Below, piece after piece: positions 1 through 18,296 of a DNA stretch of 64,000 bases. The stretch comes from Lingula anatina (taxonomy: Eukaryota > Animalia > Brachiopoda). The translations under genes and the position numbers were made by a program. The notes under the pieces are model-generated. The model saw only the letters and a list, made by a program, of their open reading frames with translations. It was not told where the DNA came from and did not search any database. The stretch spans positions 67,186,788-67,250,787 of the forward strand of contig CM120640.1 of NCBI GenBank assembly GCA_051362555.1. The letters run 5' to 3'. Position 1 is the first letter of the stretch. The number at the start of each line of letters is the position of its first letter.

Positions 1-213
1 GATTGCCTTTGTCAACAGACTAATGACAATTGTGGCAATGGCGCTGATGAAGAACAACAGAATACCAAAGTGGAGATAATGGACCTTGGAAATGATGGGC
101 GGGATGGGGTTATCTGATGTTTCTCCACATGGGGGAGCAGGCCCATAGCTGTACTCCCAGATAAAGCGGGCAAGGCCAGTAACCAGTCCAATCATCAAAC
201 CCCAGAAAGCTCC
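1..213 (-). CDS. SLC5A exon 12, truncated by the window edge ([31 protein letters not shown]...[29 protein letters not shown])
   Basis: TAG acceptor at 214-216; GAFWGL and VHYLHF motifs; frame open to position 1. Confidence 0.93.
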
Positions 214-3200
214 CTATAGAAATCATGCATAAAGTAAAAAATATTAATGTACAGGGAGGGGAAATTCCGTGTCTACATATTGTGTAAGAATGTATAAACA
301 AAAATTTACTCCAATAAATAAAAAAACTAGACAAAAATCATATCTAAAATCAAACATTTTTCATAAATTAACAACAATTAAATATTTTTTATCTTTACTA
401 TATATATATCTAAAAGAGCCCTTTGGACTTAATTACCTGCTCATTGATTCTCTTCCATGCTACAGCCAGGACATACACAGCACAAATAGGTGGCGCCAGG
501 AAGCTGGTGACAGCCTGAATGTAGTGGAACAACTCAGAGACACTCTGCACAATGGGGATCCACACCACACTTATTACCACCAAAATCAGGACAAAAACTC
601 TGAAATACAATAGGAAAAATAAGCTCATACAAAATTTGATTTTGAACTTTATTTTAAACCCCAGGCCACCCTAATTAAAATATTTCATAAATCAGACAGA
701 TTTGACATGGTCCATTTAAGTATCAAAAAGCTTAATGTATCCTTTTAAGTTAATAGTGCTGAAGATCTTGTAACTTGCATAGATGAAAATTAGTCAGAGT
801 AGGTGTTCTTAAAGGGAGGAGTAGCAAATCACTCACATTCAATAACTTGCCAAATACTAAACAAAACTGGTGAATTCTATTTCCAAAACATTACATCAGT
901 AAAACTCCAAAATTATATTTTTTATAAGTTCTGGAAAGCAAGATTTGACAAGCATAAAATACTGGGGTAGTCAAATAAGCAAATAACTGGGTAATGCCCA
1001 TACCTGCCAACAATCATAAGCTCTATGTCACTGGCACGCTTACGGATTCTCCTCCATATGTCCATGGTGAAGATGGTACTGCCACTGTTAAAGATGGAAG
1101 TCAAGGAAGACATCAGAGCACTCATCATCACAGCCAACATCAAGCCACGTAGACCTGGAGGCAGCAGACGGATCACGAGCAAGGGGAACGCTATGTTGGT
1201 ACAACCATTGCGACTGCCACAAATGGAATAGCAGATATCTGGATCAGCACAGCCAACTTCGTCTGTAACAGAATACAATTTATGCAGAAACTTGAGGCTA
1301 AATGAAAGCAGTTATCCACTTGAAACATCCACAAAATAGTACTAATTAAGAAATCTATGTCTACTTTAACCATATATCTGAGAGTATGTCCGCTGAATAA
1401 TAAAAACACATTGCAACATTTAGCCCATTTTAAGAAGTTTTAGTTAACTAAGTTATGGGCGGAAACTTAGATAACTTAAATTATTCAACATTTTGATGTT
1501 TTTTAGGAGATATTTAAAATTCATTATATTTCATGAAATATCTTTTCCTATAAACAAATTATTTTAAAAAAATTATCTGATCTTAGAATACCTGAAATAG
1601 TTAACTACATAAAACTAAAGGTGTGAGTTATTATTATTATTATTGTTACCTGGAAACAGGATTCTTGCAATCATCCCAGGGTACACAATCAGCCACATAG
1701 GTAAGATCTTCAGGTATCCAGCCAGGACAGTGCCTCCCTTAGCATGAGACAAATCCTTGGAAGCTAGAGCTCTCTGCACTATAACCTAAATAAAAGAATA
1801 TATGGGTTGAATGGAAATGTCAAAATTTAGATATAATTTTTAATTATTCCTGAAGCAATTACTTTAAATCAAATTGGTAAAAATGAATTTCATTTTTTCT
1901 TAAATGGTCCACTATTATGCACACAGGGAGAGATGAAACACCATTTAAAACATTTCTATCCATGTTTTTAAATGTATATCCTCTGCACATATATCTATCA
2001 CCAAATGCACTATTCTGCAATAAAATGTAAACTTTTTCTTAATAAAAAAAAAAGTTATACAAAATGCCCATATCTATAAAAAGTATATCTGACTCTAACA
2101 AACATCAGTTCTTAAATATAACATCAAACTGTATCTTTTTTTTTTACAACCTTGATGGTTCTTGCTAAACAGCACTGAATTTCAGCATCATGCATTTAAT
2201 TGCACATTCTACATATCCTTAAAATGTATCATGAACTCCTCTCCATGATTACAAACTCTGTGCAGTTACTAATCTCAGCAGTGAAAATCAGCAGGAATTC
2301 TGTCCAACATTGACCTCATTGACTAATGTAACAGCAGTAAATTCTAATAAAATAATGAAATAATAAAACAACAACAGGTAACATTTAACACATGTATTTC
2401 TATTTGGGTCACCAAACTGGTTATCTGCATGTAAAATGACCCGCGATAATCAAAGCATGCCAAATGTATTGTGATCCATGCACGTGACATCTGTGAAATG
2501 TCATGCTTCCTTCATTTTTATTTGATAAAACAAAGCCATCAGGTGTGACAACAGTGACACTGACAATCAATATCGTCAAAAAAAGATGCAGTACGTAACG
2601 TGGCCAAGACAATATGACTATGTATAAAGTGCTTTCTGCCACTGGACACTGGCAGCTGATATGCAGTGGTGACACTACAGTGGATAGCAGAAAAACCTCT
2701 GAGGTGCAGCAAGTACGTAGTCATCAAACATGATTCTGTCATAAAACTGTCATCAAAATTTCACATAATTAACTTATGTCAAAACCTTCATGCAGTTTGC
2801 TAATTTCCATTCCATGCAAAAATAAAAAAATTCAAATCTTAAAGAATCTAACAAACATTAAGCTGAGAGCTCATGACAAATATTGCCCTCCATGAAGCAC
2901 ACATCTTGCCTGCACAAGCATGATCACCGTGACAACAGCCATGCTCTATACCTGATCAGAGCACCAATACCAAGTAGCAGAGATGGTCAGCCCAAAGAAA
3001 ACACCAGTCCATGGGAGATCTTTGGCATCTAAATCTCTGACAAGGTGAAAGGAGTCGTAGGGCGGGGGGCCACATGTTACGTTATGACCACCATTACGGT
3101 AAGATCTGGGTACGGCACTGAAAAACTGCTCAGAGATTTTCTCAAGGCCTCCTACTTCTACAAAACCTACAAGATATTATTCACATAATGTCAAACAGAT

Positions 3201-4654
3201 AAAAGTTTCTGTCTGATTAAATGCCAAGTCAGTTTAGCATTACATGCAGTTTCATTTTGTTAATTGATCTCTTAACATACTGCTTTAATTGATATCAACT
3301 TTTTTTCTAGAAAAAAAATCCTGCCGTGGTAGTCACTTTGCATCTCAGGAAGCCTTCTATTGTGAGAAGATTCAATAAGGTTAACATGCACGGTGAGAAC
3401 AGATATCACCCATGCTTTGCCTAAATGCTCAAAGAAATCATTATGATCAAGCCACCACTCGGACATCAATTTTGTGGCATCCAGGCATTCTAACATTGCC
3501 AGTTACCTGATCCGAGCAAAAGTACCAAACAGCAATGATGGTCAAACCAAAAACCATCCCTGTCCAGGGTAAGTTGTCATCTGTCACATCTCTGAACAGA
3601 TGCATTGAGTTGGAAGGCAAATAACCACAACTGGTGTTTGGAGAGCCCTCTCTGGTTGTGTTGGGGATGGCAGAGAAATACAGGCCCATCACATTTTCAT
3701 ACCCTCCCACTTCAACAAAGCCTGTAGAACAAAGGGTTTATATGGCAAATGGGCAGAAGTTGACAATTCCTGTTATCCAGAACTCTTATAATTCTTAACA
3801 GAAAAGAGTTTCTATACCCCCGGTATATCTGCAGGTTTGTGATCCAAGGGGGTACCATTCAAAGTTCCATCAGGATTCGTAGATAATTATTCAAATAAAA
3901 TACAGGTGTACCAAAAAAAAAAAAAAAGGAGGAATATAGACAACAGCACTTGTGAGGTGTTCTCATAGAACCATCGTCATTATGATTGCATGGATATCTT
4001 TACAACTGGTTTTGGATAAAAGAAAATATATAAAACTTAAGAATAATTCCTCATGAAGTTTTCATGGTACCAGTACCTTTTTCTTTCAAATGACCAAGTA
4101 CCATCTACATATACCATCTACTGTTGTAACTGGGGAATGTTTTATCACTTTTCAGCGATTGCTTCATGCACTTACCTTTATAAGACTTGGTAAAATACAG
4201 CAGCTGTGCAAATCATGGTTAACCACACAGAATCACATTTTCATTTTTGAATGGATGTGTACTAAAATGCACACATTTACAGAATTTTTTGAACAATTCA
4301 TAGCAATTATGTAAAAGCAGTTTGTTTTTTGTACTTTTGGTTTTCATGTTGGTCGAAATATAATACCAATCCCAACATGGTTTACAATGATTGCACATTA
4401 TGATCCAACATAAAACAAAGTTACACCACATTGCACACCACATGACATAAAACACCCATTCACATATCCTTTCTCAAGTACACTGAATGGCGCATGCTGG
4501 CACTTCAGAGAAACTGCCATTCATATCTGTTTTTAACCTTTTCCTTCTAAATTGTTCTTTTTAAATGCCAAGAACATATCTGCAGCAAAGAAGTCCAAAG
4601 CACTGCCAATTAAATTATATGTGTTTTTATCAGTCACCACAAATACAGTGATCA

Positions 4655-4706
<52 letters not shown>

Positions 4707-7700
4707 AGCACCCTCCTGACCTGATCTGAACACCAGTACCACACTGATGAGATGGTTAATCCCACCATCACTCCTAGCCATGGAAGAGAGTCATCATCAA
4801 TTGATCGAATCAAATTCATTGAGTTTGCTGGGGGAATGCCACACTTTGCATAAGTGTCATTTGGCGCAGCATCTCTTGTTGTATTGGGGACAGCAGCAAA
4901 AAACTTTTCAATCAAAGGGTTGTAGCCACCAACTTCAATAAAACCTATTTCAAGAAATTTAGAACTTAGTAATATTGTCAAAATTGTTCAAATAATGTGT
5001 TAATTTTTTGGGTGTCAAAGAAGGTTGGGTAAGTAAGGAAATGGTTAATTTGTTAAGGGAAAGGAACCCATCATAACAAGGGAAAATGTTATCTACTACC
5101 CAACATGGGGGAAAATTGGTTTTTTTTTAAATTATTTTGTCAAAATATGATAGATGGGGTAAATAATATTTCATCACACAAACCAAGCATGCACTCTCTT
5201 AGTGAAGCACGGCACAGCAACACATTCAGCACAATATATACTGACATCTAATAATAAAACAAAGACACTAAGAGACTAAGAAGTCTATACAGAAGCTACA
5301 TATATACTTACACTCAACATTTACTGGTAAAATCAATTTCAAAGTTTTACACTGGTAAAATGTTTCAAAATCAGGTCCAATATTCAAATGAAGAGAACTT
5401 GTTATGAAATTGAATTGCCTGAATGATTTTACCTGATCTGGTGATGTGTCCAGCACTACACTATTAATAATTTCAGACAAAAGACAAAAGAAAAGACTTG
5501 TAGTTTGTACAACCAACTTGGCACATCAACATTACCATATAAATTGATGTTTTCATTTTCATGTTCTTCAGCAACAAGCATTATGGTTTTACCTTCCAAA
5601 GGTTCCCAAAATGATTTCTACAGATGAAGTACATGTCACTTTGTCAACACTCAATCCTTGAGAATAATTCCAAGGTTGACCACCAAACAAACTTCCTCAG
5701 CAACTATGTACTTCACCTTGAAAAAAGTTTTGGGAAAAACCCCTGTACCTGATCCGAGCACCAGTACCACACAGAGTTAATAGTGAGCCCGATCATGACT
5801 CCAGTCCAGGGCAATTCAGGGTTGGATATATCCCGTATAAGATGCATGGAATCATGAGGGGGCATGCCACATGTAGTGTTAGAAACACGGGTAGTGTTAG
5901 GAACAGCAGAGAAGTACTTTTGTACAAGTGTCTCTAAGCCACCGATGTGCACAAAACCTATAAAATGACCATGCAAAGCATGTGAAAGCCTAGTGAAGAA
6001 AGAACATAGTTAAAGCATTTTGGAGGCAATGCAATATAACAGTCTTGGTATGATATACCTAAGTTCATGGTGTTATGTGACTTTGTATGTATTGTATGGC
6101 AACTTTTTTGTTAAAGGAAAGGGGTCAAAAATGTCTTTAAATTTTTTAGAAAATTACACTGACATATTCTGGACTAGAGCATATAGAGAAACCAGTAGTT
6201 TATACATATAAAATCTATCAAAATGCCAGCAGGTGGACAGTCTGTGTCCACATAATTTAGATGAATGCATTGCCTCCATGTGTTCAGTGCAGCCAAGTGC
6301 ATGCATGTGAAAGCAGGAACCAATTGTTCTACATCACACAGCACAGCTTCAGTGCACACAGCATACTTCAAAGGGTTGAAACAATGTTAAATTGTGCATG
6401 CCATAGAATGCTGGCAGCTCATTAAATAAACTTCACAATGAGTTCAATGAAACTAAGTCGGTTAATCTGTACATTTGTGGCAATGTATGTATAAATTCAG
6501 AACCTAAATTTTAGTTCGTAATGAAGCATTTACGGATAGCAGACAATTGAAACATGCTAAAGATATGATCAGTCAATTAAAAAGTGCAACAATTCATAAA
6601 AAATATCATTTAACAGGCATCCATAACAACTTTAATAAACAACTTAATATTTTGCTCAATGTGTCAGATTTTAACATTTTGAAATGAAAATAATTATAAT
6701 GGAGAATAGTTCTCAAATACAAAATAACACTACACATTAAATGAAATAAAAGAAATGAACATAATTTATAAAAAAATCTAAAAAGGAAAAAAAATCTGCA
6801 CAAGATAAAACTTTTACTCACTCATAACCATGAGGATAAAGGCACCAATAACCATGATGACAGTCTGAATAAAGTCTGTCCAGATCACAGCAGTTAGACC
6901 ACCTAAAAATTGACCAGAACATATGTCAAGATCTTTGTAAACAGGACAAAAAGGGGCTGGATTATCTAAATCAAGGGATTAGGGGAATTTTAAACCCACC
7001 TAGGCAAGACTGAAATTTCAATCTTGCCTAGGCGGATTTAAAATCCGTCTGGATTTCAAGTTTGCCTGTGGCTTACATATTGTTTAGCATGTCATATGTA
7101 AGTAGACTGATCATCCATGACAGCTCATAATCTCTTGACTTTGAGAAAAAAAAACAAGATTTTGAGCGATTTGGATGAATATGGGTCAGAAGTTACGACA
7201 GACTACCAAGATTCTTGGACATTTTCTACTCTTGTATGACATCATGCAAACAGCCTCATTTTCATCTCTTTTGGATGGTTTCTATTGGTTGTTATCTTAC
7301 CAGCAATGGTGAAGAGAGCAGCCAAGAGCAGGAGAGCAGTGATGGCAAGAGGTAAGTTCCAACCCATGGCCAGCTGAATGAACAGGGCTCCAGAATACAG
7401 ATCTGCCTGGAGAAAGGGATGGAATATTCAATACGATGTTTATGTCCATTTATCAGTGGTGACTGGTTTAAGTCTGGTACATTTCAGCAGACAATATGAA
7501 TAGTATTTCTTTTTAATTCACTGTTAGTTACTCTGTAATTTACTGGATTGAATATTACTTTTAAATCACTAAAATTACAGCATAGGTGTTTTAGTTTCAC
7601 CAAACATGTTCCCCCTATCTCCAACAGATTTTCTTTAAAAGAACCTGTCAATCACTTACTGAAATTTTGGTGAAGACATACAAAATCAAAGTCAAGACGG

Positions 7701-8417
7701 CCAGATAGATCCGTATGCGTTGACCACCAAACCGCTTTCTGAGGTACTCGGGCATGGTGTAGACCTGAAAAATCAGTTTGTGAGAAAACGTACAAAGGTG
7801 GACAAACATAATTCATTCATCTATTTTGTTTTATGTTTTTTTCTGTTATAATTTTCTTTGATTTATTTCATAATTTATTTATCCTTTTTGTGCAAGTTAT
7901 CTGCAAGATATCTCTAAAATTTTGTCAAGTGAAAACGTTTTTAATGCATTTTGATTTATTAAAAACATATAGACTTGAAAGGGACATAAATAAATGCTTA
8001 GTCACTACTTCAAATTCTTCAGTAACCAAAAACCAAGCTCTGTTTGTAAAGTATTAAGAGGTTAACAATAGATTCATACAAGCTGAACCAGAAGAAGAAA
8101 TAAAAAAAAAATATATCTGAAGATTTTAGGTTTTTTCTTTGATTCTTTTTTATCATACTTTGTTCGGAGGCATTTCCTTTTTAAAGTTAAAAGTTGGTTT
8201 ATTCAATACACCAGCATCTTCCTTGTAGGCCGTGTACTATGCATTACAACACACCTGGATTTTTATTTTTTTAAATTTTTGCTAGGTAAGTGATAATAAC
8301 TTCAAATTTGTAATAAGCCATATAGTATTGTACTCACCCCAGCAGCAATATATACAGGTACAAATATCCATCCTAGAATGAGCAGGATAAAAATGGCCTG
8401 AAAACAACAACAACAAC

Positions 8418-8462
<45 letters not shown>

Positions 8463-11400
8463 GTTTAGAATGGCTTTTGAAAGTCAATACAAACAATAAA
8501 TGAAGGATTTACTAAGATTTACTAAATACTGATTGATAAACTTCAGAGCTTCCGGATTTAGCATTTGTGCAAAGCATATGAGGCTTAAGTTCGAGTTACA
8601 GAACTATGCATGGGCCACAAGACTTATCTTGAGCTAAGACCAAAAACATACTGGATTTTGCACTTTCATAGCTGATTATATTAAAGGTACTCTCAATGGA
8701 ATCTAACCATCAAAATGAATTTTCCAAGAGAAAAGGGGGATTTTATCCTTTTCCTTATCATTTCTCAACCAGTCCTTGCACTTGGATTTGGTATCTAATT
8801 CCATTTTTAATTTAATAATTAATTTAAATCTAGATAACAGGCCAGTCATTTACAATGATCTTCATAGGCATGGCCTCATTTTCACACAAGAAAATACCCT
8901 GGTGTCTTGTGTCCCAGTAATATGCGGTGTATAATACAGACTTTGCAAGCTGTCATGGCTACCTGCGCAGACTCTGAAGATAATTACAACACTAGATACA
9001 CCTTATTCAGATACACTTTTACTTGAAGGGGTTTCATCGTTATAAGGTCTGCATTGGGAAATATAAGAAGCTTTACAGGATATACATATGACTATTGGGG
9101 GATTTTCAAATGCTTGAAATGTACTTTTAAGCTTAAACAGCCAGGTTACAGGGCATGCTAACATTTACTAGCATTGTGTTGGGCGTGGTTAATGTACTCT
9201 TGTGAGTAACATGAACTTTAAAAATTTTGCTATTTTACCCTTAAATCCTTACACAGAAGTGTTCAATGCACCAGATTTAAAATGTTATGTCTCACTCTGG
9301 TTGCTCATCGCATCCAAACAATATCAATTCATCAGAATTGTAATTCTGTTGTCCTAGTAACTGTTCTACTTGTTCTACTGTCTAAATCACACAGAAATGC
9401 CCAGGTATGTGATGAAAAGTTCAAGGTACAATGTTCTGCCAAGTTATTTCTGGAATAATATTGGACATAATGGAAACCGTCACTGTCAACTACTAACAAA
9501 AGAAAGGATGGATATAGTATACTTTAAAACTATGTGGGGTAACAAATGGAAATTATCTCCATAAGAACCTTAGTCTTGGTAGCCTTTGACAGTAAAATGT
9601 ACCTTGGTTCTGTAGATATTAGGAAAGGGTACCACCTGGCCATTGATCATCTCATAAATGTTAAAAAATATTGCTTAATTTACTAATATGAAAGCAAATT
9701 TCGAGAGGAAGACTTCTCTTGTAAATGAAAATTTAAAAAAATGTGTAAAAAGTGTGCAAATATGTAGAATTTTGAATTTGAAAGACAAAATTCTGCACCT
9801 AAATCAAATTCCCCAAACAAGTAATTTTTAGCATAAATTGGTCATTTCAAATTTTAAGAAGTTTTCTATAAAATAAATTAAGGTACATGCATTGTGAGAT
9901 TAAATTTAAAACTAATCTTTTCTTTTAAATCACAAGACAAAGTTCTTCAGCACCACAGCCATCTGCTTTGTAATAATAAAAAAGGTACACATTATTACAG
10001 TACTCACACTGTTTTAGAACAAGGCACAAAGTGAATATAGTAGCCACAGTAGCTTGTACTGGCCAGACACTTAGTACTTGAGGCATATCATTTGTTAAAC
10101 GTAGACCTCTTGTCTTGTTGACAATTCTGCATACATCTAGGCTTAGGTATGCACAAGAGACCATGCAGGTATCACATGTTTGAAATATGTCAAATGTATT
10201 GTTGGGTAACAATTCTAACATGATCATCCATCTAAATGTGATTCTAATTATACCCCTGGTATGCAAGACAGTTTCTTTGACCAATACATTACACAACCCT
10301 ACAATAAGTAAAGTGAAACATATTTTAAATAAACTGGACAACAATGATTTTTTAAAAAGTGAATGTTCATGTTTTCTGGCAGTTTTCAAATGTCTATTTA
10401 TGGGATTTATCTACAGCAGCTTTCTCACAGCTGGTTTGAGACTCTAGCACCCATCAAACTACCAGCTAGGATAAGCATCCCATTAAAACTTCAAAGGGTA
10501 AATTGATAGATGGTGGAAACATGGGTACTTATTTGAAATTGCTCTAATTTTCAGTGGAAACTATCAGTAAATTTGGCTACAAACCCAAATAGCAGTACAA
10601 ATCATTATCAGTGGGCTTTTTATGCAGAAGGTCACATAAAAATGAAACTTATTTTTGTATGTGTTCACACTCACTGCAAAATGTCTGGCTTCATAACCTG
10701 CTGTTTTCAATTTCAGGGAATTTCATTTCAACGCACCTTTTCTATGAAAATTCTATACCTTAATGAAACAAGAAGACATGTATAGAAAAATATTTTCAAC
10801 ATGACAGCAAAGGTTCAAAACACAACTACACATAGGAAACTGCCCATGCAAAGGCACTTAAACGTGAAGTCACACATCAGATTGTGTTAAACTTGACATT
10901 CCATAGTTTATAATATGTATGTAAAATCTGGACAAGGACTGAAACAAACCAAGTTCTTCAATTTCAACTTTTCCAAACATGTCCCTTGTAGTATGTGTCT
11001 GAACTTCAGGAGTATTATCACAAAAGTTTGTCTTGTAACCATTCTTATAGGTCTCATGAAAGAAATGAAGTTTACAAATCCATGTATAGTTTACCTTTAA
11101 ATGGTGATTTAGATAATAATTTAATAGATTTAAAAGATATCTTTAGAAACCAAAGTTCAACTGATTACAAAGAATTCAGTGGCCGTGAATCAAGTTCACC
11201 AGATACATCAAGTATATATGCCCTGCCAATACTAACAAAATCATCTTCTGAGTCAACATGCCGCCCTCTGATAAGGGAGGACTGAGACAGTGATTCTAAA
11301 AACACACCCATCAGTTGCTATAACAAGATAGTCATCCTACATTAAACTTGAAGACAATATTTATCCATTAAGGCCACAGACTTATCCAAGAGGTTGCAAA

Positions 11401-14400
11401 TTCATCACGCTATATCTACAGGCATGTCACTTTTGCATTATAGAATTTTTGAAATATTTCTCTTCATAAAACTTTTCAAAATCGAAAAATGAGTCTAGGA
11501 CAGGAGAGATGCTAATTTTTCTAAAACCTCTCTTCGATTTATTCTCCATTCTCCATTCAAAAATAAAAAAATCACCCTTTTTAAAATCTACATGTACCCG
11601 CAAGACAATCTGACCTCTATTATCAGTGTTGAAAAAGTTGACAAAGAAAAAACATGCAACGTCAATAGAAGCAAAGAATTGGCATCTCATTTATCAGTCC
11701 CCACAGGGAGGTGTGGTGTCAAGGTCACTGGTATCATGCAGTGAACAGGTGAGACTGGGCAAGTCACACCCAAAAAAATTCTACTGTAAAGTTCCATCTG
11801 ATTCGACTTATTCTTAGGAGCCTGACTCTTTTCCTTGTACATATTTCTACTATTGCTCAGAAATTAAATAAATTTTGGAGTCCAGACACTTTATCAGGGA
11901 AAAAATAGCATTGAACAGTATTTTTTTTCTGAACAAATTGGTTCTAATCTGAATCTTAAAATAAGATTTCATAACTTTTCACTGTAAAGCAGATTCAGCC
12001 AAATGTGGCCAAAAATGCATTAGAAAACACCCATAGAAAACACTATAGATATCAAGAATAAAAAAGAGAGACACCAATTCCACGTGTAGGGAAATTTCAA
12101 ATTTCGAAAAAAAAATTTTTTTAATCAAGCAAGGGCAAAAGCAGGTGATGTTCGTGTTGCAAATTCCTCTGTCCTGTTTTCTAGACCACTGGCTGATAAA
12201 GGTAAAGACAATGTGACAAGTAACTGTTTACTTGAACTGGTACCACCATAACTGCAAACTTCGATAAAACTGATCTGAGTAAAATCAGTCAAGTGCCAAA
12301 AGAAGACCTTCCTGGTGTAAAATAAAATATAATATAATTGTTTACTTCTCCCCACTTCTAATCTATGAAATATGTTCTCTGGTTATATGGATCTGAAAAG
12401 TTTTAAATAATTTTCACAGTGCCTTTGTTTTATTTTTCGGAATCTTGACTCTTCAAAGGCACTGAACAAAGAACATCTGCCATAACTTTCACATAAAAAT
12501 GCCTTTTTTAAATCTTGCTTGTGAAGATATTGATAAATATTCAAGATAATTAAACTAACTTTTCTCCATTTTTTTAGTCCAAAAACATGTTGCAGGTATA
12601 ATACCAGACACTGTAAAAACAAAATGTACCACTAATATCAGATAGACACATTTTAAAAAGAAGAGCATGAAACCTGTCTTGCCTTTGTAGTACAAGAATG
12701 ATAAATAAACCTGCCACAAATTTTAGACTGAATGACAAATGTGAAAGCATGCAAACCAATTGCACAGACTGAAGGCAGGTATTGTCAGCAGTGGTGTGTT
12801 GGTGTGTTTTTACATACTTTAAAAAAAAGCCTTTTTTCACGAAGGACTGTCCTGGACAAAGAGTGTGTGGTACACATGGCCATTAAATGTATGAAATAAA
12901 GGCAATTCAACTTGTCTTACCATGTACAATTGTAATCTGGGGAAATTCTACTACTTTTCAAACAATTGTCCTTGGACTAATAAAGTGCCACACCCATGGC
13001 ACAAAACAAACTAAGTGATCATAATAAATATATACAAACATATACAGTATGTGTGTGTGTGGGGGGGGGGGGCAGGTTTGTGTAAAACCATGCAGGGAAA
13101 ATTTACGATATTTTTAAATAATAGTTACCTGACTAAATCCACTGCATACCCATGGCACCATGTGAGAATAGTAGTGTGCATCTGCATAGTTTAGTTTTAC
13201 ACCAAAACTGGTGTTTTTACATTTCAATATTGAAACAAAAATACATCTGGGTTAATGCCAGACATGTGCACTGACCTGGGATTTGGGGGGGGGGGGGGGG
13301 GGGGGGGGGGTACAGATCAAGCCCCAATAAAAATTTAATTCCTTGGATAATTTCTTGGAAATGGTGGATTTCTTAGAACTTGACATTTAATGTTGGGCCT
13401 TCAATCAAACTACTGGACTGTCCCATGTAACCCAGGTCAATGAGCACTCTATGCTACTTACGTTGAGTTCAAACACTGCAATCCCAATGCCACTGGATGC
13501 ACCAGACCCTGCTAAGCCAATAAAATGACCACTGCCAATATTACTGGCAAACAACGAAGCTCCAACCTGGAAATAAATTAATTTTATTATTCTTACAATC
13601 AATTTAAAAACAGACCGACATAAAATATAAATATTAAATATTTGGAATATATTTGACATTAAACAGATCAGATGCACATCTTCAAGAACAGTCAGTTTAA
13701 CCTGTAAACATGTTCTGCCATTATATAGTGCCATACTTATAGATTTTATGTCCTTTTGGTGTGCACCACAACATTTGTTTCTTATTGCATTTCCCTCTTT
13801 ACAAAAAATATATCATATGAGCCACAAACGTGGAAGAGACCCAAATCGTGGATGGAAAGGATGGAAGTTTGCATTATTTATAATGACCCCCCTGCTACTG
13901 TCAAGAAATAACCAAGAGCAGTCAATAAAGCAGTTCAGCATGTTTATTCACACAACCCACTATCCTTTATATTGAAAATCTATTCTCATGTTTGCACTAG
14001 AAACCATCTTTTACGTGTTTATTTTTACATGCTTTTTTTCTTAAGGATGTGCACTCGACCTTCCCAAGACTGGTACAGAATATAATAGTATATCTTTCTG
14101 ACATTGGATAAACAAGACTCATACCTCCCACTTACACATTTGGAGAAAAAAAACAAAAAGGATGTCCCCATTTCATTAGAAAAAAGTGGTATAAGTGACT
14201 AATAAATATCTTTAGTTTTCCTGTCATTTTGATGATTCAACATGAAACTGCAGACACCCAACTGGGATCTTCCTTCAGATTTTGAAAGTAAAGTGGTTTC
14301 TGGGGATTGGCATTACTCATATATCTACAAAATATGCATCTTAAATGCTTATGTAGTTCTGACTTAGTATAACTAAATTTCAAGTTAAATGAGCAACAAC

Positions 14401-17400
14401 AAACAGGTATAGTGTTATGTAAAGGAAGCCCAAATATTTTCTTTGGCTATACATGGTTATATTCTGCATACATAAAGTTGTTGTTTTGGTCAAACTCTAG
14501 TACTTTAAGACCACCATTATGTCAGGTCCAGCCAAAGTTAAATGTGACCTAGACCCACCACAAGTTATAAAACCTTCATCCTAGGACCCTCAAAAGAGTA
14601 AATTATACAAATTCATCACTGCTAAAGAACATCAGCAAATGTTGACACAGCAAACACTGCCACTGCCTTGGTGGTATTATTAGGATAACTCACCACAGAT
14701 ATGGTGACATTTCCCCTGCATTTTATATCGTATCTATTGAAACCTATGTTATAGTTAAAGATAAGCCTGATTTTTTGTATGCCTTGTATCTTTTAAGAAC
14801 CTTTGTTAACAAATTTTGATAAATGGTGCAGGGCTGTGTCAGCCTATTCAAGCACTAAATTCCTCAACTATGATCTCATTTAAGTTAAATACAAATTATA
14901 CAAGGTACTGTTAGAAGAGAAAACCACTGCTTTAATTCAAGTGCTGAACAACCACAATGACATAATATTCACATATATTACGATTTTTTAAAAGGTTGTC
15001 CTGTATGAACTGTATTTGGGGAGGTTCATTTTGATCTCCCTTTATTGCCTTAATATCAATCTATTAAAATAATGTATTCCTTTCAAGGCAAGTTTAAATA
15101 TAATGAAGGTTTGTAATTTAGACAGCATGGGTAACAGGTGCTACTGTACTAGGTTTAGGAGAAACCAACAACAAGTTACAACAGCCAGGATATTATATTC
15201 CACAATTGTGACAATTAAAAGAATAGAATAGAATGGATGAGTATCAGAACTTACAGGAATCCAATGCATGCTTCTTCCTGCCAAGAAGTAACCTCCAACA
15301 CTGCCTCGATTTCTGCATGATGACTGAAAATTTTAAAAATAAATATAATGTTACAGAAATACATTTCAAAAAATGCAAACAAAAACATTCAATTTAATAA
15401 CATCAGCACTGTTGAAATGACATTTTCTACTCTCTATTGCTGTTTGATACTGAAAATTGTTCAGGCAAACTGACACTGTAGGTCAGTTCCCAACAGCCTC
15501 TAAATCTCTGGGTGTGACCACTTTGAACATCTCATAAAACTTTTTATTTACAAAATGAAATATTCACTTAATTTGTGTTTTGTAAATTGAAATATGCAGC
15601 TTTTGATTTTCAAACCTCAAAATTAAAACCAAACTTTAATTAAAAACAAGTCAGCAAAGCTGTCAAATGTACAGACAAAAAAACAGGCAATAACTATGCA
15701 GAAAATAGGCTACTGTCAATTCTGATGCAAAAGTAAATTATGTTAAACTGCAAATTCAACATCAAATTTAAATTATGCTCAACAGGTAATACCAATGTAA
15801 GTAAAATGTGTAACAAGTTAACACTTTGAAAATGTTTAACCTCCAGAAAAAGAAGCCAATTAGACTGCTTTTCAAACTCAGGCTGCATTTTAGTCCTGTA
15901 TTTCTTTTTAGAAAGTTAGGCAATCATAAGTAACATGGTTTTCCCATAATGGTCCTCATGGCAGCAGCACGTTTTTTTCAAATTTTGATGCAATATTACA
16001 TAATGTTTAACAGCATAATGACCATCAATTTTAATAATAAAATATTAGTATTATGGATATTCAGAAAATGTGACTAGCAAAGGTCTTCAGGCCCATGGAA
16101 CTTCAAAGTCACAACAACAAAAAAAGCATAACTACTACAATAGTTGCCCCGATCATGCTGATTTTCGAACATGACCTGCGTTTTATGAATATTCATCAGC
16201 TTTGTAAATATATAGCCAAAAAGTAAAACTGCCTTCCACTTATCGTGTTTACAATGAAAGTGCATGGCGTCGGCGACAGAGACAGTGACGGCGACGACAG
16301 ACGCAGGTGATGGCAATATGTACAGACACATCTGTGCATATTTACTGTATTGTTTGAGACCAGTAAGTGACATGGTTTTTCTTAAATGGTCATTATGGGA
16401 GCAGTGCCCAAAATAGATTTTTTTCAAATTTTGATGCAATATTACATAATGTTTAACAGCATAATGACCATCAATTTTTAATAATAAAATATTAGTATCA
16501 TGGATATTCAGAAAATGTGACTAGCAAAGGTCTTCAGGCCCATGGAACTTCAAAGTCACAACTTGAAAATGCCAAAATGTAAACAAGACAGCACTGTTCT
16601 GAAATGGGTTTTTTTTTTATTTTTAACAATTTTTTTAACATAAAACAAAATTAACAGGTTACTGCCATTTTTATACGATCAACTAAGAAAATTGATGACA
16701 TGGGAAAAATATCAATACAACAGTGCTGAATGTCCAATTTCCTCCATTCTGAGATTCTGAACATAGTGAATGATTGAATCTGACAAACTGCAATGATATG
16801 AGTTTATTTCCATTTTTGAAACTTTATTACACAATACACGATAACAAGCTTACCATCATTTTTACAAAATCAACTAATAATGTTGTAAAGACTCAACCTG
16901 TGTTTTAGTAAGATTGCCCACTCCTGTGAGTTTAATGACAATTGGCCTATCTGTTTTTCTTATATTGTGTTTACAGTGTTGCATATATGCTGAAAAAAGA
17001 AAAAACAGCATAACTTCTACAATAATGGCCCGATCATGCTGATTTTGGAACTTGACCTGCGTTTTATGAATATTCATCAGCTCTGTAAATATAAAGCCAA
17101 AAAGTAAAACTGTCCTCCACTTATCGTGTTTACAAGGAAAGTGCACGGCATCGGCGACGGCATCGGCGACGACAGACGCAGGTGATGGCAATATGTACAG
17201 ACACATCTGTGTCTGTACATAAAAAGTGAAAAATAGAAATACAACAGACCCTAGTATTTTAAATAAATATATACCACTCCTTTAGCCTATTTATAAGAAA
17301 GTTTGCCTAAAAACTGTGTAGAGATTACACCCCATACAAACTGCTGTTTACACAAGACATACTGTCCTGATTTATCAGGGCACACCTGTCATTTTTTCAA

Positions 17401-18296
17401 AAATTCACAACAATTCCATTTTCAATGCGCCCACAAGTCCTGAGGTGTTATTTGATGAGGCATCCACTGTTCCACATTTCTGGGTCAACAGGTTGAGCAG
17501 TAACACTGCACAATAAGCTTCTCCTGAATCATAATGCAAACCGATCTCTGCCTCTGTACATAGTGCTATTAATAATTTTACCTTATACAGCTGCTTTTAA
17601 GACACCTTGGCAAAGCAGATACACAGCATTAGCATTATTTTTATTTTTGTATTAGTATTGTGCCTCAGGAATGTGCCCTTTTTGACATCAAAACTAATTG
17701 CTGTGCCAGTTACCTGTTTACTAAGTGCTGTCAAAGGACTGGTGACAATTCTGGCTGTTAATTTCTCATTATAACTGATAATCATATTAAGGGATTAATT
17801 TAATATGGATAAGAGAAGCATAATGATTTTTAAAAGATTTAAAAACACCTTCAGTTTAAACAGAAATATACTGATTGATTCTGCAAAATCGCTAAAAGAA
17901 AAACAGTGATATGGCCTGGCACATATAGAGTGAAAAGCTCGCTGTAAAAAAGTAAATTCACGCCAAATAGACTGATCCCGAGTTAATAACTACCCAAATA
18001 GGGCGTGACAGTGCGCTGATTCAGTACAAGCATTCTAGACTTGTTCTATGTAAATATAAATTACTATATGCTTTTCGTGATAAGAGTCCACAATGTTGGT
18101 TTACTGCTGAGGTGACACCATTCCTGTGCGCCTTTAAAATCAACAGGTGCCTAACTAGCGTCGTCCTGATATCTACAACACCTGAAGTGAAACGGCTTAC
18201 CCAAATTCCGACGGCCATCACAGCAGCAAGATATCCCAATATCACGAGGATATCTCCCCAGTGGAGAGCTGTTTCCCCTAACGAATATTCAACCAT
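1..18296 (-). CDS. SLC5A (SGLT-type) sodium/monosaccharide cotransporter gene span; at least 12 exon positions, exon 8 in 4 alternative copies; 3' end beyond window start
   Basis: Spliced translation gives SSS/SGLT motifs: [79 protein letters not shown]. All introns are GT-AG with matching phases. Orthology within SLC5A1/2/4/9/10/11 cannot be resolved by eye. Confidence 0.96.
437..599 (-). CDS. SLC5A exon 11 ([54 protein letters not shown])
   Basis: 163 nt, CAG/GTAATT, phase 2/0. Confidence 0.94.
1004..1262 (-). CDS. SLC5A exon 10 ([21 protein letters not shown]...[34 protein letters not shown]...ELMIVGR)
   Basis: 259 nt, CAG/GTATGG, phase 1/2; TM8 Na2-site serines. Confidence 0.95.
1650..1785 (-). 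CDS. SLC5A exon 9 ([45 protein letters not shown])
   Basis: 136 nt, TAG/GTAACA, phase 0/1; continues WCSDQ into VIVQR. Confidence 0.95.
2952..3166 (-). CDS. SLC5A alternative exon 8d ([71 protein letters not shown])
   Basis: 215 nt (3n+2), TAG acceptor, GTATAG donor, open frame, phase 1/0. Not in the ORF track; translated by hand. Confidence 0.92.
3507..3721 (-). CDS. SLC5A alternative exon 8c ([71 protein letters not shown])
   Basis: 215 nt (3n+2), CAG acceptor, GTAACT donor, open frame, phase 1/0. Confidence 0.92.
4656..4703. repeat. 48-nt poly(A) run (poly-U in the SLC5A pre-mRNA) just downstream of exon 8b
   Basis: Direct reading. Confidence 0.9.
4721..4944 (-). CDS. SLC5A alternative exon 8b ([74 protein letters not shown])
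   Basis: 224 nt (3n+2), TAG acceptor, GTCAGG donor, open frame, phase 1/0. Confidence 0.92.
5749..5957 (-). CDS. SLC5A alternative exon 8a ([69 protein letters not shown])
   Basis: 209 nt (3n+2), TAG acceptor, GTACAG donor, open frame, phase 1/0. Confidence 0.92.
6822..6902 (-). CDS. SLC5A exon 7 ([27 protein letters not shown])
   Basis: 81 nt, TAG/GTGAGT, phase 1/1; SSS family signature region. Confidence 0.94.
6987..7044. repeat. 58-bp near-perfect palindrome (29-bp arms, 3 mismatches) in SLC5A intron 6
   Basis: ATTTTAAACCCACCTAGGCAAGACTGAAA|TTTCAATCTTGCCTAGGCGGATTTAAAAT. Confidence 0.85.
7301..7406 (-). CDS. SLC5A exon 6 ([36 protein letters not shown])
   Basis: 106 nt, CAG/GTAAGA, ends in phase 1. 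Confidence 0.94.
7660..7764 (-). CDS. SLC5A exon 5 ([35 protein letters not shown])
   Basis: 105 nt, CAG/GTAAGT; conserved TMPEYL.KRFGG motif. Confidence 0.95.
8338..8397 (-). CDS. SLC5A exon 4 ([20 protein letters not shown])
   Basis: 60 nt, CAG/GTGAGT, phase 0/0. Confidence 0.93.
8403..8460. repeat. Compound (AAC)n(AAT)n microsatellite abutting the SLC5A exon 4 acceptor
   Basis: Direct reading. Confidence 0.9.
13462..13566 (-). CDS. SLC5A exon 3 ([35 protein letters not shown])
   Basis: 105 nt, CAG/GTAAGT; TM1 Na+/sugar-binding motif. Confidence 0.95.
15255..15323 (-). CDS. SLC5A exon 2 ([23 protein letters not shown])
   Basis: 69 nt, TTTTCAG acceptor and GTAAGT donor, phase 0/0. Confidence 0.93.
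15642..17225 (-). mobile_element. Non-autonomous Helentron-type element (HINE/DINE-1-like), copy 1, in SLC5A intron 1
   Basis: Minus-strand layout: T-run terminus, 14-bp stem-loop TATGTACAGACACA/TGTGTCTGTACATA (about 17192-17221), GC-rich (GCCGAT/GTC) microsatellite, internal tandem subunits, subterminal inverted copy of ATGTACAGAC (about 15667), short CAGC-TTT-GCTG hairpin and TTGTTTTT end. Strongly similar to 40391-43780. Contains an extra partial terminus at about 16120-16337. Confidence 0.75.
18201..18296 (-). CDS. SLC5A exon 1 ([32 protein letters not shown])
   Basis: 96 nt from ATG to a GTAAGC donor; resembles the N-terminal helix of SGLTs (DI.V...Y......VG.W). Confidence 0.88.

Follow-up and report, generated by a model that had tools for sequence, protein, structure and literature searches.

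The 64,000-nucleotide stretch of the Lingula anatina (Brachiopoda) genome analysed here (assembly GCA_051362555.1, contig CM120640.1, positions 67,186,788 to 67,250,787; hereafter, the window) carries on its minus strand a gene of the SLC5 family, in which exon 8, encoding an extracellular loop and the end of transmembrane segment 6 (TM6), is present in four homologous copies, 8a to 8d (Table 1). A six-frame motif scan located all four TM6 ends on the minus strand between exons 7 and 9, with sequences identical to those given in an earlier reading of the window made from its letters (the original prediction). Each copy has an AG acceptor and a CAG/GT donor, starts in phase 1, ends in phase 0 and has a length of 2 modulo 3; with any single copy included, the frame stays open between exons 7 and 9, and a premature stop arises in all 11 multi-copy combinations as well as upon skipping of all four. 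Judged from the DNA, the array is a candidate tandem mutually exclusive cluster: its homologous exons are neighbours, share one phase and have intact splice sites, and their co-inclusion or joint skipping is non-productive. The resemblance of these exons to sugar symporters is not due to chance (8a alone matches SGLT1 at E = 2.8e-14). Molluscs and bryozoans often have SLC5 paralogues in tandem, so that one might suspect remnants of a whole-gene duplication, or else an assembly artefact; this explanation is refuted by the divergence of the copies (56–63% DNA identity), by the single-copy state of the remaining 11 exons in the window, exon 8 alone being repeated, and by RNA reads that join exon 7 to 8b across 8a, and we leave it practically no probability.

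Two database proteins, P0002 and P0003, come from this locus, matching its exon 10 at 100%. P0002 contains the Pfam SSF domain (score of 459.9 bits, the cut-off being 22.8), and a structural model, built for the 8b isoform only (predicted local distance difference test score of 87), matches SGLT1 and SGLT2, with a TM-score by target of 0.96 and a deviation of 1.8 Å from the substrate-bound structure 7YNI. The sugar-site residues N78, H83, E102, Y290, W291, K321 and Q457 (SGLT1 numbering) are all present in the 8b isoform, whereas position 291 is Phe in 8c. By domain, fold and site residues, the gene is a spiralian SGLT-like SLC5 sodium–sugar symporter, transport itself being predicted. In a quickly built tree of 28 proteins picked from 120 listed homologues, it lies in a spiralian clade (Shimodaira–Hasegawa-like approximate likelihood-ratio support of 98), adjoining molluscs, and vertebrate SGLT4 and SMIT2 group apart (support of 100); the ‘SGLT4-like’ names attached to its relatives are automatic labels rather than statements of orthology.

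Table 1. Coordinates of the SLC5 gene, its exon 8 copies and associated features in the window.
Feature	Length (nt)	Positions	Strand	Remarks
SLC5 gene (SSF, PF00474)		1..18296	minus	start codon at 18296; exons 1–12 inside the window; 3' part extends past position 1
Exon 8a	209	5749..5957	minus	TM6 end INSVWYW; spliced use not seen; TGCATG 17 nt upstream of acceptor
Exon 8b	224	4721..4944	minus	TM6 end ISSVWYW; spliced default; used in P0002 and P0003
Exon 8c	215	3507..3721	minus	TM6 end IIAVWYF; S287A and W291F; spliced use not seen
Exon 8d	215	2952..3166	minus	TM6 end ISATWYW; S287A; without the first loop N-glycosylation sequon; spliced use not seen
Five cluster introns	4173	within 1786..6821	minus	Rbfox-type motifs of the sense strand: 17 GCATG, 10 TGCATG
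Constitutive exon 3		13462..13566	minus	TM1 ASNIGSGHF (N78, I79, H83) and E102; glucose-type, common to all isoforms
Constitutive exon 7	81	6822..6902	minus	upstream of the cluster; RNA joints 6900/7299 and 4942/6820
Constitutive exon 9	136	1650..1785	minus	downstream of the cluster; bears K321; RNA joint 1262/1650

Among the four copies, 8b most resembles the exon that mollusc orthologues have in single copy (~70%), and a tree of the exons alone places it among mollusc-type exons, with 8a and 8d pairing weakly and a single clade of all four not being rejected (approximately unbiased test, p = 0.19). A clean swap of exon 8 was not found in 10 isoform or paralogue pairs, including those from nine other protein sets; the pairs from Bugula, Potamilus and Littorina differ throughout, in the manner of paralogues. 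The copies also differ in loop length: 8b has a longer loop with a Y-x-x-C-G motif, as in mollusc and bryozoan orthologues, and 8a, 8c and 8d have a shorter one, as in annelid, nemertean and vertebrate proteins. The extra copies may thus predate the divergence from molluscs.

Residues at the C3/C4 edge of the sugar pocket

TM6 of the four copies aligns without gaps to wild-type human SGLT1 (7WMV, MSILTLWYWCTDQ) and SGLT2 (LTIVSGWYWCSDQ), which confirms the residue assignments of the original prediction, namely, Ser287 in 8a and 8b, ATWYW in 8d, Ala287 with a Trp-to-Phe change at 291 in 8c, and Ser287 in SGLT2. In the order 8a, 8b, 8c, 8d, the copies have N, S, I, S at position 286, S, S, A, A at 287 and W, W, F, W at 291; position 288 varies as well, and 283, W289 and Y290 are invariant. 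Published structures of SGLT1 and SGLT2 support the assignment of T287, Y290 and W291 to the pocket. In substrate-bound SGLT2, W291 bonds the C3 hydroxyl and the C4 fluorine and S287 bonds the latter, C1 and C2 being read by H80, N75, E99 and K321, and SGLT3, which has A287, binds 4-deoxy-4-fluoro-D-glucose with weak affinity (PMC12322204). Y290 and W291 have further been described as forming the inner barrier (PMC10203128) and have been implicated in the Na1 site (PMC6133168), and a T287N substitution lowers the binding of glucose relative to galactose (PMC11061222). Our literature search retrieved no article on W291F in SGLT1 and no relevant one on T287A in any SGLT.

The original prediction that the variable positions face the pocket thus stands: aligned with the SGLT2 contacts, 287 and 291 are at the C3/C4 edge of the sugar (PMC12322204), and it is therefore more likely that 8c and 8d tune affinity or C4 selectivity. 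The S287A replacement in both would abolish the hydrogen bond that Ser makes with the group at C4, and W291F in 8c would abolish the indole bonds to the C3 hydroxyl and C4 as well, with an aromatic ring retained. Since W291F comes on top of S287A, low affinity, tolerance at C4 or poor coupling would be expected first of all in 8c. This is also the most unusual of the copies because Phe291 is rare: among the 111 homologues covering the site, Trp occupies this position in 106 and Phe in three, all from Armadillidium, with Phe also in 4 of 150 profile matches. Position 287 is less uniform, with 72 Ser and 29 Ala among the 111, and Ala287 occurs together with H83 and Y290 in single-copy proteins of Mytilus, Octopus, Limulus and Lineus. 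Two SGLT1 structure constructs, presumably engineered, have Ala at 287 as well.

From these residues, the original prediction had suggested that the isoforms may differ in sugar selectivity, affinity or coupling, so that splicing would reproduce what vertebrates spread over several paralogues. Read as a switch in the class of sugar, this would have the 8a and 8b isoforms carry glucose or inositol and the 8c and 8d isoforms carry mannose or fructose like SGLT4 and SGLT5. The likeness on which this proposal draws holds in part, in that 8d ends in the ATWYW of SGLT5-type proteins; SGLT4, however, reads ATWCW and has Leu83. T287A is indeed among the substitutions named for the permissive pocket of SGLT4, but that pocket is attributed to H83L, T287A and Y290C jointly, and the conversion of SGLT1 used a quadruple mutant (PMC12605011); of the combination Leu83, Ala287 and Cys290, the Lingula gene has at most the Ala, His83 being constant and Tyr290 present in all four copies. 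The altered preference for glucose over galactose in the T287N mutant likewise speaks for an effect of this position (PMC11061222), whereas the mannose and fructose preference of SGLT5 maps to S70, E71 and L75 in TM1, the reversal of which yields a 30-fold gain for glucose (PMC10439028). The constant TM1 of our gene reads ASNIGSGHF against ASSEGSGLF in proteins of the SGLT5 type, which carries mannose, fructose and 1,5-AG, and it is without Ser70, Glu71 or Leu75, and N78, I79, H83 and Y290 are common to all isoforms. Mannose and fructose differ from glucose at C1 and C2. Seven unlabelled proteins with ASSEGSGLF also have ATWYW (37 ATWYW proteins were examined, most of them too short to include TM1). 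With the mannose determinants in a constant, glucose-type TM1 encoded by exon 3 and with Y290 kept, the analogy to SGLT4 and SGLT5 is weak.

Further observations point the same way. Eleven of the 29 homologues with Ala287 are invertebrate proteins without Leu83, and Ala287 is found in ordinary mussel, octopus and horseshoe-crab orthologues; vertebrate SGLT4 and SMIT2 form a clade of their own; and the RNA runs described below show no isoform containing 8a, 8c or 8d. Nor does SVWYW mark inositol carriers, as had been supposed, S-V/I-WYW being the commonest state of invertebrate orthologues. The TM6 motif of SMIT1 we take to be that of the original comparison; the sole SMIT2-labelled protein in our tree, which includes no labelled vertebrate SMIT1, reads SMWYW and groups with SGLT4, apart from the Lingula gene. 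A switch between sugar classes is, in our assessment, quite improbable, and the idea that splicing recreates the vertebrate paralogue repertoire is not supported.

Constraint, Rbfox-type motifs and RNA evidence

All six pairs of copies show a far higher proportion of synonymous (0.65–0.88) than of nonsynonymous (0.27–0.33) differences, with synonymous sites near saturation, and a codon model of 69 codons rejects a nonsynonymous-to-synonymous rate ratio (omega) of 1 on all branches (likelihood-ratio test, 105). Of the 11 columns that are at least 90% conserved in ~110 homologues, 8a, 8b and 8d keep all and 8c keeps 10, W291F being the sole departure. Under neutral simulation at the best-fitting branch lengths, the probability of staying intact is 0.009 for 8a, 0.009 for 8c and 0.0002 for 8d. 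By these measures, the set of four copies is under long-term constraint at the protein level.

The introns of the cluster show no similarity to one another apart from Rbfox-type motifs. Their 17 GCATG sites compare with an expectation of 3.6 (p = 2.5e-7, uncorrected for the 1024 words), making this word the top non-homopolymer pentamer, second only to TTTTT; in dinucleotide shuffles, which give means of 5.9 for GCATG and 3.2 for TGCATG, the observed counts were reached in 0 and 1 of 500, respectively. No enrichment was found in the other introns of the gene, where the observed numbers were reached in 126 (GCATG) and 58 (TGCATG) of 500 shuffles, and the maximum for GCATG in 212 overlapping control stretches was 8. 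The contexts of the 17 sites are mutually unrelated and, hence, do not represent one repeat; CATGC, the antisense word, shows a slight excess too (10), to which palindromic overlap contributes. Of the GCATG sites, seven are found downstream of 8d and three in the intron between 8c and 8d; another precedes the 8a acceptor closely, and none is within 200 nucleotides of 8b. A search for Dscam-like docking and selector pairing, made without a shuffle control and not covering weak G–U pairings, gave only AT-rich complements of 9–11 nucleotides. The enrichment of GCATG in the cluster introns suggests regulated exon use, and whether Rbfox itself, with its usual neural or muscle bias, would be the regulator is, on motif evidence, an even bet. 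UGCAUG, the Rbfox element, is present in 11 of 29 mutually exclusive clusters of Caenorhabditis elegans, repressing exons from upstream and promoting them from downstream (PMC4165533); if these rules apply in Lingula, the placement of the motifs would lead us to expect a shift to 8c or 8d in Rbfox-positive cells. Outside the cluster, the 5-kb intron 3 (8398–13461) has seven TGCATG, a weaker excess.

Expression was assessed in eight of nine raw-read RNA runs matched by species label, which come from three studies and bear no tissue labels, 6–30% of each run being read. Runs X1, X4, X7 and X9 were aligned on 4705–8395 and runs X2, X3, X5 and X6 on 1000–4650, so that 8a, 8c and 8d are each covered by four runs; joints were listed from three reads upward, and a minor form below ~5–15% per run would escape. 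The joint from exon 7 to 8b, which crosses 8a with the expected skip of 1877 nucleotides, is supported by 6, 2, 35 and 31 reads in X1, X4, X7 and X9 (74 in total) and is the only listed joint out of exon 7. Among the loose read ends listed for 4705–8395, beyond which there are five lesser rows, those at the 8b donor match exon 9 (6, 4, 43 and 35 reads in the same runs; 88 in total) and those at the exon 7 donor (4, 5 and 6 reads) correspond to an Ile-to-Val allele of 8b carried by P0002. Conversely, loose ends at the exon 9 acceptor give the 8b consensus with 17, 25 and 50 reads (92 in total; agreement of 0.98–0.99), X5 having four reads in all. Both annotated proteins, P0002 and P0003, contain 8b, which is the default exon.

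The species is highly polymorphic: 8b alleles in RNA and in P0002 differ from the window at 4790–4791, at 4846 and at the start of 8b, with changes from Asp to Gly (in a DDSL stretch), Lys to Glu and Ile to Val. In three of the runs (X1, X4 and X7), reads with loose ends on both sides stack on a 40-nucleotide piece of intron 6 (7209–7249), probably a dispersed repeat transcribed elsewhere.

A proposed regulated choice of exon 8 and its rivals

The explanation that we favour, at roughly 55%, is that the old and intact exon 8 copies of this spiralian SGLT-like symporter form a four-member mutually exclusive cluster under regulation, with 8b as the spliced default and the extra copies tuning affinity or C3/C4 recognition. 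On this account, 8a, 8c and 8d would likely be picked singly, in less common cell types or stages, the choice would probably be under Rbfox-type control, and the extra copies are predicted to adjust how the sugar is bound rather than which class of sugar is carried. That another copy (8a, 8c or 8d) is used to some extent appears likely, and, provided that such use occurs, the residue differences would probably translate into measurable kinetic differences. An elaborate version, in which a four-way Rbfox switch rebuilds the C3/C4 wall by cell type, with 8b as a general glucose carrier, 8d with relaxed C4 selectivity and 8c as a sugar sensor in nerve or muscle that, like SGLT3, has low affinity or is uncoupled, strikes us as rather unlikely.

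Several results weigh against the favoured explanation. No joint from exon 7 to 8a was listed in X1, X4, X7 and X9, nor one from 8c or 8d to exon 9 in X2, X3, X5 and X6; depth on 8a is intron-like in X9, and that on 8c and 8d is about 2 in X3 and X6, where introns reach 1.3 and 3.4, respectively, and is thus intron-like or slightly above. Three protein searches found no product with 8a, 8c or 8d, the best identity being ~60%. Branch-wise omega is not identifiable because synonymous divergence is saturated, and the shared model fits no better than one with omega = 1 on just 8a or just 8d; neutral simulation at 0.02–0.05 substitutions per site gives a probability of 0.16–0.71 of staying intact, which leaves room for a recent loss of function. 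In addition, GCATG was spotted by eye before it was tested, and the extracellular loop preceding TM6 holds most of the columns that vary among the copies, the pocket holding fewer.

As to the protein searches, the one for 8a among long proteins gave one candidate, which did not match, and a profile of the three exons 8a, 8c and 8d gave 29 matches among short proteins at 35–76% local identity, the top one, P0137, being rejected as an unrelated protein with an internal repeat.

The RNA, protein and codon results raise the alternative that 8a, 8c and 8d were once functional and are now dormant or recently dead, the gene making the 8b protein only: 8b alone is spliced in the eight runs and present in both proteins, neutrality is not rejected for the 8a and 8d branches, and recent decay is compatible with the simulation. 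Yet dormancy needs three recent losses with frames, splice sites and conserved residues all kept, and it has to accommodate the persistence of Rbfox-type motifs in introns that are otherwise dissimilar; moreover, the two variants seen in 8c reads are both synonymous, a weak indication from three reads. We consider it unlikely. Comparably unlikely is a different reading of the sequence variation, according to which the copies are used but the selected differences concern the extracellular loop or lid (glycosylation, trafficking, gating or inhibitor sensitivity) and those at 287 and 291 are tolerated drift. The concentration of variable columns in the loop, the presence of one N-glycosylation sequon in 8d against two in each of the other copies, the free interchange of Ser and Ala at 287 among orthologues and the effect of the exon 4 variants of NKCC2 on trafficking (PMC7818487) all fit such a reading, but W291F in 8c alters a sugar-contacting residue that is almost always Trp in homologues, and no other highly conserved column is altered in any of the copies. 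The part of the original prediction that described these as alternative exons stands as to four intact homologous copies; their use as alternatives is a prediction, 8b alone having been seen spliced.

Three observations concern other parts of the gene. After residue ~543, beyond position 1 of the window, P0002 and P0003 have homologous yet different C-termini (the last loop and TM13), which suggests that the terminal exons of this gene, too, are duplicated and used alternatively. In intron 1, local segment duplications at ~15940–16560 and 16980–17220, including two related GC-richer pieces with similar long open frames, probably represent a repeat family. Intron 6 contains, at ~6950–7080, a palindromic-looking element spotted by eye, possibly a miniature transposon.

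Known systems and significance

Among the closest parallels to the favoured arrangement is NKCC2 (SLC12A1), in which exons 4A, 4B and 4F are likewise tandem homologous exons for one transmembrane segment that cannot be combined in frame and set ion affinity by nephron segment (PMC7818487, PMC8373072). NKCC2 is, however, an APC-fold ion carrier with three such exons, all shown to be expressed and assayed, whereas the Lingula gene encodes a sugar carrier with four, in which the exon bears substrate-touching residues and only one copy has been seen spliced. The C. elegans mrp-1 gene has, similarly, a four-way homologous mutually exclusive cluster (exons 13A–13D) in an invertebrate transporter, but this is an ABC transporter, its exons are multiples of three nucleotides long, so that the frame does not enforce exclusivity, and their use has been validated in RNA (PMC4165533). 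In coq-2 (coq-2a/coq-2e), alternative exons switch the substrate of an enzyme, as shown genetically (PMC7434440), whereas here the main mannose and fructose determinants lie outside the swapped exon. SLC7A2 and SLC25A3 are catalogued among transporters with swappable homologous exons (PMC8373072). Within the SLC5 family, human SGLT1 and SGLT2 share with the Lingula protein the fold and residues N78, H83, E102, Y290, K321 and Q457, and W291 in three of the four copies, but are ~47–52% identical to it, the Lingula gene sitting in a spiralian clade. The resemblance to SGLT4 (SLC5A9) and SGLT5 (SLC5A10) comes down to Ala287 in 8c and 8d and to the SGLT5-type ATWYW in 8d; Leu83 of both, Cys290 of SGLT4 and Ser70 and Glu71 of SGLT5 are missing, and SGLT4 falls outside the clade of this gene. 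Exon 8 of the Drosophila MRP gene is another precedent, on which our literature search returned nothing.

The term ‘SLC5A’ is absent from the main text of PMC9741552 and from the supplements of PMC8373072 and PMC5740500, which deal with sets of human tandem exons, and no case of tandem mutually exclusive exons in an SLC5A gene, invertebrate SLC5 genes included, was found in the literature within reach of the search, most subscription papers lying outside it. The exon 8 cluster is thus real and old and of a kind already known in transporters, but apparently not previously reported for SLC5.

Structures of the pocket do not fully account for sugar discrimination by SGLT proteins (PMC11061222), and engineered swaps at position 287 of SGLT2 gave no measurable uptake (PMC12322204). 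Although their value hinges on 8a, 8c or 8d being used at all, four natural versions of the loop and TM6 on a constant backbone constitute a series for testing the contributions of positions 287 and 291 and of the extracellular lid. Were the four-way Rbfox switch to prove true, the Lingula gene would be the first SLC5 with a substrate site programmed by splicing, and its isoforms would provide a natural isogenic series for the study of sugar selection by SGLT proteins.

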